Shown here piece by piece: positions 1,095 to 6,748 of a stretch of 64,000 nucleotides of DNA. The notes below the pieces were generated by a model. It worked only from the letters and a program-made list of their open reading frames with translations, was not told the origin of the DNA and did no database searches. Source of the DNA: a virus (taxonomy: Duplodnaviria > Caudoviricetes); IMG/VR virus record IMGVR_UViG_3300031993_000012, positions 32,001 through 96,000 of that record. One strand, written 5' to 3'. How positions within the stretch are numbered: position 1 is the stretch's first letter; every line of letters starts with the position of its first letter. The translations under genes and the position numbers were made by a program.

Positions 1095-3031
1095 ATAAGC
1101 TTGAAGTATTAACAATCGTAAAAGATTGGATACATGATTTGTCATATATTAATATGGAGACCGATGTTGAACATATTATGGATACTGATGGAGATACATT
1201 TAAAGTATATTATATTTCATCAGAATTCATAATTTCGATTACGTGGCTCGCACACAGTGAGTCTATCACCATTCTTATCAATCACCAATTTATCGCATCC
1301 ATTGAAAATAATGGTGAAATAGTTTATGATGAATCATACTACGAAGAAAAGCTTAAACCATTGGTTCAGTTTGATATTCGTTCTCTGATCAGCAGACTGA
1401 AACACCCACCGACGAAAGAATTCAAAGCATTCTGTAAAGGTGTTGAAGAATGGTTATCCCATTTGAATAATTCAACATTCAAATGGTATTGGTATTCTCC
1501 AACAGTGAATTCAATCGGTAAATGTTATAAAGTTAATGTTGGACCATTCGAGCGTTTATTCCATATCGAAAACTGTGATGGTGGAATTATACTGGATATC
1601 AATTATAATCAGACAATCAAATATATCGATGGTTTGGTAACAGTATTGCCTAAATCAGTAATTAAACCATTTACGTTTGAAGAAATATCACATTTACGTG
1701 ATACGATATTTTCCAGCATGCATAATGAGGAAAACAATCTCAAAATTATACGTATTGAGGAAATATTAAAACAGTGGTTATCGGATATGTCAATGACATA
1801 TACACGTAATGGTGAACATGCATATATTGCATGTATAACACAGCGTGGTTTACACCCATCTACGCACGCTCATATCGGCGTTAGTGTTCATGAGCAGAAT
1901 CCATGTATTTGGTTGTACAACACAACCAACCGCATTATTACATTCGATCCGGATAATAATTGGGAACCGGATATGTTAACTACATATTCTAATCATTATC
2001 CATTCTCTCATACTAATCTTACGAAACTCATGGCAATGTATGTTAAAGAATTTTGTGGTATTGATTATGAATTCCGCAATACAATATTTAATACAATTGA
2101 GCAGTTTTTAAAACGCAGATATCATGGGAGAATTGCGTTATCAAAAAACAATATCAAACATGTTAGATGGAATTTCCGTGGTAAAATCTTTGAATTCGTT
2201 TGGGTTCATGACAGATGGAGAGTATCTACTACCAATTTAGGTGTACACGTTCGAATCTCTGATATTTATCCATCTGGTGATATCAATATGGGTTCATGTA
2301 TAGGCTCAGAAGAAAAAGGTCTTATCAATGAAATCCGTGAAGCCATTAAACCAGTACCGGATTCCACGGATGAAGATTTACTGGAATCTATCAGTAAAGA
2401 ATACAGAACAATCACTGATGTACTGACTGATGATTTCAAGAAGAAAGTCAAGGAACGTAATACTGTAATTAATTCCAGTGATATTAATAATGTCATTAAC
2501 GTTATTAATGCTGGTGACATCCAGGAATTTCCTAGTAAAATTGAAGTTGCTGAGTCTATATTCCATCATAGACCTATAGATGAAATCAGAAAAGAGTTCA
2601 ATGATGCAGTTCATTCAATTAAACCGGAAACACTCTGGTTTGATTCAATGACTGATGTTATTGAAAATATTAAAAAGCAGGAGGAAAAAGAAATGCTTAT
2701 TGACGAAACATTGGCTGTTAAAATTGTTAAACAGCGGGGAGGTATGTATATACCGGAAATCAAACACGTACTCTTTAATGAGACAAAGCTTGTTACTACC
2801 GTAATATTTACGGATGGTGACAGAGTCACATCCAAATGCTGTGATGAAAATGTATTCGATCCCGAAATGGGATTCGCAATGTGCATCATGAAGAAGCTTT
2901 ATGGTAATCGCACACGTTTCCAGAAGGAAATCAAGAAATATCACAACGCAGGTATTCATCGGAATATCAAAATCGCAGAAAAAGCAGCGCGTAAAGAAAA
3001 AGAAAAAGAAGAAAACGACGCTGAAATATAA
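1091..3031 (+). CDS. large hypothetical protein with conserved phage C-terminal domain
   Basis: 646 aa; C-terminal IKHVLFN..VTTVIFTDGD..SKC....FDPEMGFAMCIMKK resembles a domain common in Bacillota phage proteins. Confidence 0.8.
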   Translation: MNKLEVLTIVKDWIHDLSYINMETDVEHIMDTDGDTFKVYYISSEFIISITWLAHSESITILINHQFIASIENNGEIVYDESYYEEKLKPLVQFDIRSLISRLKHPPTKEFKAFCKGVEEWLSHLNNSTFKWYWYSPTVNSIGKCYKVNVGPFERLFHIENCDGGIILDINYNQTIKYIDGLVTVLPKSVIKPFTFEEISHLRDTIFSSMHNEENNLKIIRIEEILKQWLSDMSMTYTRNGEHAYIACITQRGLHPSTHAHIGVSVHEQNPCIWLYNTTNRIITFDPDNNWEPDMLTTYSNHYPFSHTNLTKLMAMYVKEFCGIDYEFRNTIFNTIEQFLKRRYHGRIALSKNNIKHVRWNFRGKIFEFVWVHDRWRVSTTNLGVHVRISDIYPSGDINMGSCIGSEEKGLINEIREAIKPVPDSTDEDLLESISKEYRTITDVLTDDFKKKVKERNTVINSSDINNVINVINAGDIQEFPSKIEVAESIFHHRPIDEIRKEFNDAVHSIKPETLWFDSMTDVIENIKKQEEKEMLIDETLAVKIVKQRGGMYIPEIKHVLFNETKLVTTVIFTDGDRVTSKCCDENVFDPEMGFAMCIMKKLYGNRTRFQKEIKKYHNAGIHRNIKIAEKAARKEKEKEENDAEI

Positions 3032-3116
3032 AAAGGCAAAAGAAGTAACATATAATTACATCAATTAGAGATTGACGAACCTGTCAACTGAATGTTCAAT
3101 GTATAATTGATGACAT

Positions 3117-3199
3117 TACCGTTTGGCGACATACACAATCACTCATGTCGTTTCGATGAGTGTCAGACAGCAATCAATGTGTATGTTCGCCGACGGGTA
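3117..3199 (+). ncRNA. putative structured small RNA with internal hairpin + ACAGCAAT
   Basis: Long closing stem TACCGTTTGGCGACATACACA / TGTGTATGTTCGCCGACGGGTA enclosing CACTCAT-loop-ATGAGTG followed by TCAGACAGCAAT. Confidence 0.5.
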
Positions 3200-3204
3200 T
3201 TTGT

Positions 3205-3285
3205 GGATGTGTGGCGGAATGGCAGACGCGCTGGTCTCAAGTACCAGTTCCGAAAGGAGTGAGGTTTCGAGTACCTCCACATCTA
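3205..3285 (+). tRNA. tRNA-Leu(CAA)
   Basis: GGATGTG/CACATCT acceptor, CTGGT-CTCAAGT-ACCAG anticodon arm, long variable arm, GAGGT-TTCGAGT-ACCTC T arm; no encoded CCA. Confidence 0.9.
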
Positions 3286-3393
3286 TTACTGGGGTTACGT
3301 TTATATTACGGCTTCTGACTTTGCGGTTCATTGCGTAACTCCAGATCACCCCTAAAACCCGGGTAGCCTTTGCGTATCTACCCGGGCAAAAAA

Positions 3394-3507
3394 CGACGGA
3401 TAACTCAGTAGGTAGAGTACGTAAAGGAATCTAGATTTAGATTCGTACAGCAATCAGCTTGCATTCTAAGCACGGTGTCGTAGGTTCGAGTCCTACTCCG
3501 TCGACCA
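3394..3507 (+). ncRNA. tRNA-like gene with 38-nt insertion in anticodon stem (TCT/Arg anticodon if removed)
   Basis: Perfect acceptor CGACGGA/TCCGTCG+ACCA, D and T arms; insert 3423-3460 splits CGT|GC; residual arm CGTGC-ATTCTAA-GCACG. Confidence 0.75.
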
Positions 3508-3508
3508 A

Positions 3509-3608
3509 TGGTCATGATGGGTAATTCCCCATCTTGTATTTAAGATGGTAACAGCAATCATCGGTGAATAAATGACGTTCGAATCGTAAATATTATTCAT
3601 CATGACCA
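3509..3608 (+). ncRNA. tRNA-mimic-like RNA with hairpin-ACAGCAAT module
   Basis: TGGTCATGATG/CATCATGACCA closing stem ending in CCA, CCATCTT/AAGATGG hairpin + TAACAGCAAT, T-loop-like ACG-TTCGAAT-CGT. Confidence 0.55.
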
Positions 3609-3614
3609 ATCTAT

Positions 3615-3722
3615 GCGGATATTAGCTCAATTGGATAGAGCGTACGGCCATAAGGAATCTAGATTTAGATTCGTACAGCAATAACACCATAAGGTTATCA
3701 GTTCGAATCTGATATATCCGCG
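3615..3722 (+). ncRNA. tRNA-Arg-like body with anticodon loop replaced by the hairpin-ACAGCA module
   Basis: GCGGATAT/ATATCCGC stem, GCTC-AATTGGATA-GAGC D arm, ATCAG-TTCGAAT-CTGAT T arm; 39-nt loop containing AAGGAATCTAGATTTAGATTCGTACAGCAAT. Confidence 0.7.
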
Positions 3723-3726
3723 AATC

Positions 3727-3835
3727 AAACCCATTAGCCGCATAGTTTAGAATAGGTTAAAACGCTGAATATAATCTGAGCATACTAGGACTATTCGGAA
3801 AAGGTTGTTCGAATCGACCTGGGGTTAATGAGTTT
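3727..3835 (+). ncRNA. degenerate tRNA-like RNA with enlarged anticodon arm
   Basis: D arm GTTT-AGAATAGGTTA-AAAC, CTGAATA/TATTCGG stem with 20-nt loop, GGTTG-TTCGAAT-CGACC T arm, extended closing stem. Confidence 0.55.
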
Positions 3836-3843
3836 AATCATAT

Positions 3844-3960
3844 GAAGGTGTTAGTTTAGTTGGTTAAAACGCGTTAAGGAATCTAGTGATAGATTCGTAC
3901 AGCATATTATTTGCATATGGCGCACGAGACACATGTTCAAATCATGTACACCTTCTTCCA
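3844..3960 (+). ncRNA. tRNA-His-like gene with 38-nt insertion in anticodon stem (ATG anticodon if removed)
   Basis: 8-bp GAAGGTGT/ACACCTTC acceptor (G-1:C73-like); insert 3875-3912 splits CGT|GC; residual arm CGTGC-ATATGGC-GCACG. Confidence 0.7.
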
Positions 3961-3963
3961 GAT

Positions 3964-4570
3964 GTGACATTAGCGCAGTCGGTAGCGCATTCGCTTTAAA
4001 GGAGAAATAATATGGAATTATCAACACATGCTAAAGGAGTTGTAACAGAATTAGCTGTACAACAAGCATTCATTAAACATGGATTCGGCGTATCAGTCCC
4101 AGTGTTACCCACTTCTAGATATGACATGATTGCTGATATTGATAGCAATTTATTCAAAGTCCAAATTAAAACAGCTAAGAAACTTCCAAATTCAGATGCC
4201 TTTATGATCAGAACGAAATCAACTAGAACACATCGATACGGTGTATCCGTTGTTAAATATACAGCGGATGAAATTGATATGTTTGCTACATGTTATAATG
4301 GTGATGTCTATGTTGTTCCACAATATTTAGCACAAGGAACTGAATTCATTTTTAGAAATTCATCAGCGAGTAACCAGAAAGTTGGTATTCATTTTGCATC
4401 TGATTTTAAGTTGGATAATGTTGTTGAAAAATGGAGAAATCAATCATTATCATTCAACAATAACCAACTTTATTTGAATAATAATGTATTATGATTATAT
4501 GATATTATTCAAATATAATAATTATCCTTTAAAGCGTGGGTCGTGGATTCGAGTTCCACATGTCACACCA
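3964..4570 (+). tRNA. tRNA gene interrupted in its anticodon loop by an endonuclease ORF
   Basis: 5' half GTGACAT-TA-GCGC-AGTCGGTA-GCGC-A-TTCGC (3964-3994); 3' half GCGTG-GGTC-GTGGA-TTCGAGT-TCCAC-ATGTCAC-ACCA (4534-4570); acceptor halves perfectly complementary. Confidence 0.8.
4012..4494 (+). CDS. PD-(D/E)XK endonuclease, PDDEXK_5 / I-Ssp6803I-like homing endonuclease family
   Basis: KG..TE...F.K.G..VS.P.....RYD.I.D......VQIKT pattern; RBS AAAGGAGA. Confidence 0.8.
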   Translation: MELSTHAKGVVTELAVQQAFIKHGFGVSVPVLPTSRYDMIADIDSNLFKVQIKTAKKLPNSDAFMIRTKSTRTHRYGVSVVKYTADEIDMFATCYNGDVYVVPQYLAQGTEFIFRNSSASNQKVGIHFASDFKLDNVVEKWRNQSLSFNNNQLYLNNNVL

Positions 4571-4726
4571 TTGCGGTCTTCAGACAGCCGCAACAATTCC
4601 TAATCACGGCTGGCACTTATACATCCCTTCGTGTCAGCCACATATGTAACCAATGAGCTTGTCCATCTCAGAGGTTGCACCTCAATTGACAGCGATATCC
4701 ACGCCGCTGTTACATATCCTTTCATT

Positions 4727-4754
4727 TACGGCAGCTCCTTCGGGAGCTGCTGTA
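4727..4754 (+). terminator. stable UUCG hairpin closing the RNA island
   Basis: TACGGCAGCTCC-TTCG-GGAGCTGCTGTA; no clear U-tract, so it could be a processing or stability hairpin. Confidence 0.45.
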
Positions 4755-4782
4755 GTACCATTTATCTTTAGGAGGAATTTTT

Positions 4783-5523
4783 ATGTTACCCGAAATAATC
4801 AATTATGCTGATGAGAAAACTCACGAATTTCGTAAATCCATTGTCAGTGGTAAACCAAAAACAATATTGGTTATACATGATGATGACAGATCGAAATATC
4901 TTGGATTGTTTGCTATGTTAAGCGGCAATAAATGTGAGATAATAAACAATTCAACCGCAATGTATCATATATCCCACGACGTTATATTTGACGATGGTAT
5001 ATCAATTGATGATATTACATTCAATATATTTGATAAAGGTAATCTTTCTGAAACTCATGTCAGAATGGTAAAAATGCCAGATGATATATTAAATGAAACC
5101 ATCAGAGATATTGCATTAGGTAAAATAACCGAAGCTCCATTAGTAGTAAGCTTGTTGACGATGTATGAAAAATGTAATGGTACGGAATATATGACCAAAG
5201 TATACACAGATGTCAGATGCGATGATAAAACTGTCGATTTATATCATGATAATCATTATAATGTCACATCAAATTCAGAGAGAATCAAATCTACGGATCC
5301 TTATGATCAGATGGAAACAGCCATGATATTTAAAAACTATTTATCATATGGATTGACTGTGTGGTATATATTCCAAAAGGTCATTGGTGATGATGAATTA
5401 AAACAGTTCGTCACCAAATGCAAATGTAAACACAAATATTGTGGTAAAGAAATAACTGTTACTAAATATTCAATAGCATGTCAGAAATTGATACTTCATT
5501 TGGCTGAACGTATGAAAAAATAA
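4783..5523 (+). CDS. hypothetical protein
   Basis: 246 aa, RBS AGGAGG; followed by hairpin ATCCCCAGA/TCTGGGGAT + T run. Confidence 0.8.
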   Translation: MLPEIINYADEKTHEFRKSIVSGKPKTILVIHDDDRSKYLGLFAMLSGNKCEIINNSTAMYHISHDVIFDDGISIDDITFNIFDKGNLSETHVRMVKMPDDILNETIRDIALGKITEAPLVVSLLTMYEKCNGTEYMTKVYTDVRCDDKTVDLYHDNHYNVTSNSERIKSTDPYDQMETAMIFKNYLSYGLTVWYIFQKVIGDDELKQFVTKCKCKHKYCGKEITVTKYSIACQKLILHLAERMKK

Positions 5524-5602
5524 TATGATATCCCCAGATAATTCTGGGGATATATTTTTTGTGTAATATGAACATTAGAGTATAAAAACATTACATGAAT
5601 GA

Positions 5603-5677
5603 TTCCGTATCGCCAAGGGGTTAAGGCAGATGTCTTTGAAGCATCTATCGCTCGTTCGATCCGAGCTACGGAAACCA
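5603..5677 (+). tRNA. tRNA-Gln(UUG)
   Basis: TTCCGTA/TACGGAA+ACCA, GATGT-CTTTGAA-GCATC anticodon arm, GCTCG-TTCGATC-CGAGC T arm. Confidence 0.92.
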
Positions 5678-5919
5678 AAGGAAGTTTACTTCCAAACAGA
5701 TGTGAGGTTCACGTTTTCACATTTGTCTCCTTAACTTTTAGCCATGTGGATACTAGTTGCCACCTTCTCTGGTATCCACGCGCTTCTTTTGTTCTATATC
5801 CTACTTCTAATTTTAGCCCGGGTTATTCCCGGGCATCTATTTTTTTCAAATTCCATATTTATATTATTTAATTGGATTCTATGAACGTAGAATCAAAAAT
5901 ATATCGGAGGTATAAAAAT

Positions 5920-5994
5920 ATGTTTGCAAAATTAATCGAATTCATTAGAGGTATCGTATCATTCCTGAGCGGAATGTTATTTGCCATCAGATAA
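5920..5994 (+). CDS. 24-aa amphipathic peptide (not in ORF track)
   Basis: MFAKLIEFIRGIVSFLSGMLFAIR; RBS GGAGGT; stop overlaps RBS of next gene. Confidence 0.55.
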   Translation: MFAKLIEFIRGIVSFLSGMLFAIR

Positions 5995-6007
5995 GGAGGA
6001 ACATAAA

Positions 6008-6748
6008 ATGGAAATATTATTAGATAACAAAAGTATCGCTGAAAAGATTGCATATGTAGATGCAGTGGAGCGCGTTGCATTGTGTAGTAATCAGTATGTA
6101 TATACTGCATTTCATAATGTAATTGTCACCGATAATGTTGAATTTGATGTAGATTTCTACATAGGAGATCCACGAGAGGTAGATTGGGATTATACTCAGC
6201 TCGATGAAGAAACCGTTAGATTTAAATTCGACGAATCTGACATTAAACTTCTTAAGGAATGCCATAATAGTAAAGAGCTTAATCAGGTGGTTCACAAAAT
6301 TCTTATATCGTGTATCGAGAAGCTTAACAAAGAACTGAGTGATCTAATCGGTGCTGGATATGTTGATTTTCAAACAATGATCTACTATAATAACTATACG
6401 AATGTAATCAGAAGCTGGAAGAATCTTAGAATTGATTCAGGGTGGCAAATCAAAAAACCTAACAATTATGGTGCAACAGATAGCGTTAAACAGGGTGACT
6501 CTGATTGGGGTGTACTCCAATTTATATGGGGAACTGCTGTTTATAAATTTGGAGATTATGGTACATCTCCTAGAGTCGGATGGATAGATATCAAAGAACA
6601 TCCAGAATTCTATGAATGGATAGATGCTGTATGTTTCGATGACATCAGTAATAACATATCCGTGAAGACAAAAGAATTGACTAATGAATTCAGAAAGGTG
6701 GTGAAGAATATTGGGGCCGTCAGTCCTGAAGACAATCGTGCAACTTGA
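6008..6748 (+). CDS. hypothetical protein
   Basis: Start reassigned to ATG 6008 after AAGGAGGA. Confidence 0.8.
   Translation: MEILLDNKSIAEKIAYVDAVERVALCSNQYVYTAFHNVIVTDNVEFDVDFYIGDPREVDWDYTQLDEETVRFKFDESDIKLLKECHNSKELNQVVHKILISCIEKLNKELSDLIGAGYVDFQTMIYYNNYTNVIRSWKNLRIDSGWQIKKPNNYGATDSVKQGDSDWGVLQFIWGTAVYKFGDYGTSPRVGWIDIKEHPEFYEWIDAVCFDDISNNISVKTKELTNEFRKVVKNIGAVSPEDNRAT

Follow-up and report, generated by a model that had tools for sequence, protein, structure and literature searches.

Homing endonucleases that reside in essential or useful genes are thought to survive there under the cover of self-splicing introns or inteins. Free-standing enzymes can also split their target gene, as mobE splits nrdA in phage Aeh1. 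Inserts of other kinds interrupt RNA genes in archaea, which have bulge-helix-bulge tRNA introns and split tRNAs, and in bacteria, where rRNA intervening sequences are removed by RNase III. The endonuclease I-Ssp6803I resides in a group I intron of the tRNA-fMet gene of Synechocystis (Bonocora and Shub 2001, as cited in PMC3984707), and T4 SegB is a free-standing homing endonuclease located in a tRNA cluster (PMC13096335). The Lak megaphages possess tRNA introns described as "enigmatic"; one of them, in a tRNA-Thr gene, contains a further tRNA gene (PMC6784885). We found no published description of an endonuclease accompanied by a spare tRNA, both nested in a split tRNA gene.

The locus described here lies in a stretch of 64,000 nucleotides (the window) taken from a 182-kb IMG/VR virus record with a GC content of 36% and an estimated completeness of about 68%. 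It contains a tRNA gene interrupted by the reading frame of a homing endonuclease (Table 1). The 5′ half carries the acceptor strand GTGACAT, a standard D arm and the anticodon-stem strand TCGCT followed by T32 and T33. The 3′ half begins with TTTAA (anticodon TTT, A37 and A38) and continues with the stem strand AGCGT, the variable loop GGGTC, a T arm (GTGGA/TCCAC), the acceptor strand ATGTCAC, A73 and an encoded CCA. The acceptor strands of the two halves pair at 7/7 positions, and ARAGORN, run with introns allowed, recognizes the split gene as tRNA-Lys(UUU) with the insert between nucleotides 33 and 34. The initial annotation had placed the reading frame within the anticodon loop of a single tRNA, and the two halves indeed belong together rather than deriving from different ancestral tRNAs.

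Table 1. Features of the interrupted tRNA-Lys gene, in window coordinates.
Feature	Position	Strand	Basis
tRNA-Lys(UUU) 5′ half, nt 1–33	3964..3997	+	Sequence, ARAGORN, intact L002 allele
Insert, 530 nt, between tRNA positions 33/34	3998..4527	+	ARAGORN with introns allowed; comparison with L002:3849-3921
tRNA-Lys 3′ half	4528..4570	+	ARAGORN; stem and variable-loop segment identical to L002
5′ arm of inverted repeat, CGCTTTAAAGGA (anticodon stem, T32-T33, AAAGGA of ribosome-binding region)	3992..4003	+	Sequence, fold, shuffles
3′ arm of inverted repeat, TCCTTTAAAGCG	4525..4536	+	Sequence
Shine-Dalgarno AAGGAG, 7 nt 5′ of ATG, partly paired within the repeat	3999..4004	+	Sequence; predicted fold
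PD-(D/E)XK homing endonuclease, I-Ssp6803I family, 160 aa	4012..4494	+	Pfam, 2OST profile match, conserved motif
AT-rich 3′ spacer	4495..4527	+	With the ORF end forms a local A-U hairpin (fold); conserved in L128

The insertion-free allele that the initial annotation had suggested seeking in related phages is present in a syntenic relative, L002 (IMGVR_UViG_3300028591_000146), which has an uninterrupted gene in the same place (3849–3921). Its anticodon arm reads ACGCT-CTTTTAA-AGCGT, and the segment AGCGT-GGGTC is shared with the window. Compared with this allele, the 5′ half in the window has an extra T at the junction of the D stem and anticodon stem, as well as a T·T mismatch at 27:43. The spliced loops TT-TAA-AA and CT-TTA-AA, offered earlier with an ochre suppressor in mind, would imply an ochre-suppressor or Leu anticodon; both readings are unlikely in view of the intact L002 allele and the ARAGORN call. 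Judged by these sequences, the split gene is a tRNA-Lys(UUU) and not a suppressor. ARAGORN detects no second tRNA-Lys in the 182-kb record, which is 68% complete, and exact copies of the 3′ half were found neither in IMG/VR nor in JGI metagenomes. The only relatives found for the upstream gene, encoding a protein of 646 aa, are those of L001 and L002.

The insert starts with AAAGGAGAAATAAT, followed by the 160-codon reading frame and the 33-nt AT-rich spacer. The previously given lengths of about 17 nt upstream and 39 nt downstream are correct when counted from the stem ends; within the insert, the non-coding sequence amounts to 14 nt (3998–4011) and 33 nt (4495–4527). The encoded protein matches the Pfam family PF11645 (PDDEXK_5) with 71.1 bits (cut-off 26.1; E 1.2e-19) over residues 4–134, and a profile built from 18 homologues matches PDB 2OST, the structure of I-Ssp6803I, with E 2e-13 over residues 3–120. 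The catalytic motif YD...D...QxK is invariant in this profile (Y37, D38, D42, Q51, K53), confirming the assignment to I-Ssp6803I-type homing endonucleases that had been proposed from the sequence.

The two arms of a perfect 12-bp inverted repeat, CGCTTTAAAGGA and TCCTTTAAAGCG, were correctly identified in the initial annotation. They pair in both the MFE and centroid folds of the 610-nt precursor, surrounded by an otherwise normal cloverleaf, with a duplex energy of −20.7 kcal/mol compared to −8.8 ± 2.3 for 200 shuffles (best shuffle −19.8). The weight placed on this helix is nevertheless reduced by its composition: six of the 12 pairs are intrinsic to the tRNA arm (CGCT/AGCG, 32:38 and 33:37), and three more arise from the UUU anticodon facing AAA of the Shine-Dalgarno region, so that 9/12 are owed to tRNA symmetry and the anticodon. 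The remaining three join the Shine-Dalgarno GGA to a TCC that is also found, without a partner, in the closest relative of the window copy (L128, 94% identical protein), where the repeat is absent and only the 5-bp stem pairs. The repeat is probably in the main a by-product of an AAAGGAG site inserted beside a self-complementary tRNA arm with a UUU anticodon, although it may happen to lower endonuclease translation from read-through transcripts. A 7-nt direct repeat, TTTAAAG, was considered as a target-site duplication left by a transposon and rejected: TTTAAA, a palindrome, comes from the tRNA loop, and the terminal inverted repeats differ between lineages.

Homologues of the endonuclease form 17 protein clusters, mostly from gut metagenomes; none was found in IMG/VR. 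The surrounding DNA was examined at 16 distinct places (40–95% amino acid identity), and all 16 are located in phage tRNA clusters. Both halves of an outer tRNA are identifiable at 14 of them, the 5′ half upstream and the 3′ half right after the stop codon, with complementary or nearly complementary acceptor strands (one mismatch in L134); only a 3′ remnant was identified in L126 and L147. A complete inner tRNA is located 20–40 nt upstream of the reading frame at 11/16 places. It is a tRNA-Lys in eight cases (tRNA-Lys(UUU) in L122, L131, L145, L132, L134, L136 and L138; L142 has a 6-nt anticodon loop) and a tRNA-Met in three (L126, L146 and L147), and its type follows the endonuclease clade in the tree. 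The outer tRNAs of these nested relatives look dead: L131, L145, L132, L134 and L138 retain no credible 7-nt anticodon loop, the anticodon stem of L132 has decayed, and the outer 3′ stem strand is missing or unrecognizable in L122, L136 and L141, to which the acceptor mismatch of L134 may be added.

The reading frame stands alone in the loop only in the window, L144 and L148. An intermediate arrangement occurs in L128–L130 (94% amino acid and 96% nucleotide identity to the window copy) and in L141, where the outer 5′ half is fused within the anticodon loop to no more than the 3′ half of an inner tRNA; the fusion has mismatched acceptor strands and a loop, CTTTAA, that is one T short. The upstream piece of L128 is nearly identical to the 3′ half of the L131 inner tRNA, including the spacer and ribosome-binding site, which argues for a nested cassette as the ancestor of the lineage of the window and L128, followed by reduction. 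In the window even the L128-type remnant is absent. Its bare form would accordingly represent a reduced derivative of the nested cassette, with reduction the probable direction of change in view of this sequence relationship.

The shortened loop CTTTAA is found in tRNA-Lys genes adjoining the endonuclease in three independent lineages: at L128:850-856, at the junction between the 5′ half and inner 3′ half of L141, and at L142:145-218. It may be a cleavage-site scar conferring immunity to the endonuclease. In addition, ARAGORN predicts a tRNA with a CUA anticodon, of the amber-suppressor type and labelled Pyl, at L148:1107-1176 and L149:162-231, adjoining an endonuclease-split tRNA in a related phage contig.

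The gene is evidently mobile, given a nearly isogenic pair of empty and occupied alleles and a reading frame more conserved than its flanks. The empty L002 and the occupied L128 share 99.0% identity over 300 bp upstream and 94.7% over 250 bp downstream, with no difference in the 3′ exon. In the 5′ exon, L128 departs from L002 by five clustered changes within otherwise 99% identical sequence, which may represent a co-conversion tract. DNA identity between the window and L128 is 96% in the reading frame and 81% in the downstream flank; the corresponding values for L144 and L148 are 92% and about 74%. The same cassette is also found within different outer tRNAs, both in L131 and L145 and in L132 and L138. 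Empty and occupied alleles, with an endonuclease gene more similar than its flanks, are what characterizes intron-less homing, and together with the exchange of outer tRNAs they are, at the level of sequence comparison, signatures of an actively homing gene.

Five nested relatives possess helices of 18–25 bp that extend the outer anticodon stem as far as the stop codon or across it, with energies of −22 to −51 kcal/mol versus −10 to −17 for shuffled sequences. These clamps move with the cassette into different outer tRNAs (L132 vs L138, L131 vs L145). The L134 helix is perfect over 24–25 bp, its arms carry mirrored indels relative to L132, and L138 has one G·U pair. No such clamp exists in L128, L141, L144, L148, L122 and L136. 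The clamps might subject the endonuclease mRNA to RNase III-type processing or to control, organize splice sites, or be a feature acting at the DNA level.

Other tRNA-like genes of the window also contain inserts. Three of them (3394–3504, 3615–3724 and 3843–3956) share a hairpin-ACAGCA module composed of AAGGAATCTA, a 4-nt loop and TAGATTCGTACAGCA. The first and the last carry it as a 38-nt insert in the anticodon stem, following CGT at 29/30, and in the remaining gene (approximately 3615–3724) it replaces the loop. Removal of the 38-nt insert restores a CGTGC/GCACG stem and leaves loops that read TCT (Arg) or, in the gene with a His-like 8-bp acceptor stem, ATG. The module is conserved across diverged phages (L002:2515-2627, L001:13908-14020, L131:416-529 and L145:283-396), its genes have no spare copies, and it is neither a group I intron nor a carrier of a bulge-helix-bulge motif. 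A 14-mer from it has at least 118 hits in IMG/VR, all attributable to chance except those in L001 and L002. A link between the AAAGGA at the start of the endonuclease insert and the AAAGGA opening the 38-nt modules was discarded, as this Shine-Dalgarno-like motif is inseparable from chance. Longer anticodon-arm inserts of 43–79 nt occur in tRNAs of related phages (L141:1182-1332, L132:1319-1449, L144:644-796 and L148:938-1070); in at least three of these a common hairpin precedes TGCAG, and an ACTTC motif lies farther downstream. Such inserts may constitute another class in phage tRNAs that still lacks an explanation. No tool calls a tRNA at two additional degenerate tRNA-like sequences (3508–3606 and 3737–3830), one of which combines a 10-bp terminal stem with a TTCGAAT loop and the motif ACAGCAATCA.

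Directly 3′ of the tRNA-Lys gene, the window contains a structured RNA of about 190–200 nt (4571–4775) with five hairpins, the last being a terminator-like stem. It is conserved in L002:3924-4110, L128:1465-1650, L131:1861-2046 and L145:1718-1910, with compensatory changes at ten pairs, and matched no family in Rfam. The single-stranded segments CATATGTA and ACATATCCTTTCA are invariant, and ACATATCCTTTCA looks like an anti-Shine-Dalgarno sequence.

We propose that a homing-endonuclease cassette devoid of a ribozyme invades the anticodon loop of phage tRNA-Lys(UUU) genes. By analogy with I-Ssp6803I, and judging from the insertion site and the L002/L128 allele pair, the enzyme would cut the pseudo-palindromic anticodon stem-loop DNA of uninterrupted tRNA-Lys genes in co-infecting relatives, and repair from the occupied allele would copy the endonuclease gene into the cut one. 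The invaded tRNA would be lost because there is no ribozyme. The usual form of the cassette would make up for this with a replacement tRNA, complete and matching the lost one in type (Lys or Met), nested between the outer halves upstream of the reading frame. The window copy appears to have lost this spare, so the tRNA-Lys is most likely disrupted and non-decoding: relatives usually carry a spare tRNA-Lys, which suggests that the window tRNA is broken rather than spliced, and the missing spare, the two lesions of the 5′ half and the absence of another tRNA-Lys from the record lead us to read it as a disrupted gene. We regard homing of this kind, with inactivation of the tRNA, as the probable origin of the locus. 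The initial annotation had weighed two possibilities, an intron that does not splice itself and an mRNA packaged in a tRNA shell; the comparative data favour this third one.

Another conceivable origin is a self-splicing intron, of group I or another kind, whose core is hidden by overlap with the reading frame. In its favour, the type member I-Ssp6803I lies in a tRNA-fMet group I intron (Bonocora and Shub 2001, via PMC3984707), and the 5′ exon ends in U. The initial annotation, however, saw no ribozyme scaffold, and searches bear this out. A permissive Rfam scan of positions 2800–6200 (E ≤ 10) found the tRNAs but no group I or group II intron, either around or overlapping the reading frame; at Rfam gathering thresholds there was none in the whole window, and the insert itself matched no Rfam family. 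The group I model is able to yield candidates in this genome, as shown by a 30-bit match (E 5e-7, below the 50-bit gathering score) at G000:C1:29601-29889 (L137), about 2.1–2.4 kb before the window start. The insert terminates in ...TTATCC, its final base being C and not the G of a group I intron; 14 and 33 nt of non-coding sequence leave little room for a core; homologous reading frames work as free-standing genes between tRNAs; and no 3′ non-coding sequence whatsoever separates the stop codon from the anticodon stem in L144 and L148. A self-splicing intron is therefore very improbable. Independently of the insert, the match at G000:C1:29601-29889 may reflect a conventional group I intron elsewhere in the phage.

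The bare copies themselves look at first sight like spliced genes. In the three independent bare forms (the window, L144 and L148), as well as in the L128 type, pairing is complete in the acceptor, D and T stems and no nucleotide of a 7-nt loop is missing; L144 and L148 differ by a compensatory change at 27:43. These points speak against disruption, but recent homing into diverged alleles explains them equally well. Under a protein-dependent alternative, a host or phage endoribonuclease would cut out the 530-nt insert, after which an RNA ligase would rejoin the two halves into a working tRNA-Lys(UUU), the acceptor stem and 12-bp helix keeping them in contact. The intact cloverleaf with an exactly restorable loop in the window, L128, L144 and L148 is consistent with this, as are the predicted helix, which places the two junctions 3 bp apart, the long co-varying clamps of relatives, and the unexplained tRNA introns of gut Lak megaphages, one holding a tRNA (PMC6784885). 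The conserved non-group-I 38-nt inserts of neighbouring tRNAs without spare copies hint that some non-ribozyme removal pathway may exist. On the other hand, inspection by hand of the window and its relatives revealed no bulge-helix-bulge motif, the helix running continuously across both junctions, and no Pfam domain of a splicing endonuclease (EndA, PF01974), RtcB (PF01139) or RNA ligase (PF09414) was found in the 182-kb phage record, which is 68% complete. The repeat is not conserved in the closest relative, and the 5′ half contains an extra nucleotide and a mismatch. Splicing is not a requirement of the family in general, for most relatives possess replacement tRNAs, and the anticodon loop is gone from the outer tRNAs of these. 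Enzymatic tRNA splicing is not known in bacteria. We consider splicing of the window tRNA unlikely, and its broader version, in which a cut-and-ligate pathway in a bacterial host removes both this insert and the 38-nt inserts of its neighbours, is equally doubtful. A different role for the tRNA halves would require no ligation: RNase P and 3′ processing enzymes could trim a tRNA-shaped shell, defining and stabilizing the endonuclease mRNA, while a long clamp would serve as an RNase III target and a paired Shine-Dalgarno sequence would keep read-through translation low. Sequestering of the ribosome-binding site is a known theme for phage homing endonucleases, the Shine-Dalgarno GGA does lie within the helix, and the clamps of five relatives, reaching from the outer anticodon stem to the stop codon and travelling with the cassette, suit such a role. 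Yet the family does not require a clamp (six relatives lack it), the 12-bp helix of the window is too short for RNase III, and most clamp arms are perfect Watson-Crick duplexes, which fits a DNA-level origin too, so a shell of this kind seems rather improbable. Loss of the tRNA through homing remains our preferred reading, with the reservation that halves regarded purely as junk do not explain the 18–25-bp clamps of the five nested relatives.

The endonuclease of the window resembles I-Ssp6803I (2OST) in its protein family, PF11645, its conserved catalytic motif and its site, a tRNA anticodon loop whose stem-loop DNA is pseudo-palindromic. Unlike I-Ssp6803I, it has no surrounding group I intron, its target is tRNA-Lys (tRNA-Met in a sister clade), and its family is found in gut jumbo phages, where relatives carry a spare tRNA inside the split gene. 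With free-standing phage endonucleases such as SegB and mobE it shares the lack of an intron, presence/absence polymorphism between near-isogenic phages, a gene more conserved than its flanks, linkage to phage tRNAs and a target gene that can be split. It differs from them in belonging to another nuclease family, in lying inside an anticodon loop and not between genes, and in the nested replacement tRNA that serves the family as compensation, along with the long clamps of some copies. Archaeal tRNA introns and rRNA intervening sequences are similar in that the helix at the insert ends continues a stem of the mature RNA and draws the halves together. However, the bulge-helix-bulge motif of archaeal introns is absent from the window, EndA and RtcB being likewise not found in the 68% complete record, and removal by RNase III, as in rRNA, would here leave an unligated, non-decoding tRNA. 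The Lak introns are comparable by description (PMC6784885) and not by sequence homology: they too occur in gut jumbo phages, interrupt tRNA genes with inserts matching no Rfam class and include a tRNA nested in a tRNA. No endonuclease gene was reported for them, whereas here the nested tRNA comes with a homing endonuclease.

The element is a real and well-defined feature, a ribozyme-free, tRNA-targeting homing cassette in reduced form. Its family appears to depart from the common strategy of hiding in introns or inteins, inserting into the anticodon loop without a ribozyme and, in its usual form, supplying a replacement tRNA. The nested cassettes offer a mechanism by which a "tRNA inside a tRNA intron" could arise in gut megaphages. 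If the bare forms were spliced after all, they would reveal an RNA-processing pathway not known in bacteria; should it consist of cutting and ligation, bacteria and phages would gain their first example of tRNA splicing by enzymes and not by a ribozyme, with a homing endonuclease gene riding in the intron and the clamps acting as organizers of the splice sites. Phage tRNA-Lys genes are both targets and counter-weapons in anticodon-nuclease defence, and the cassette would tie endonuclease drive to these same genes.
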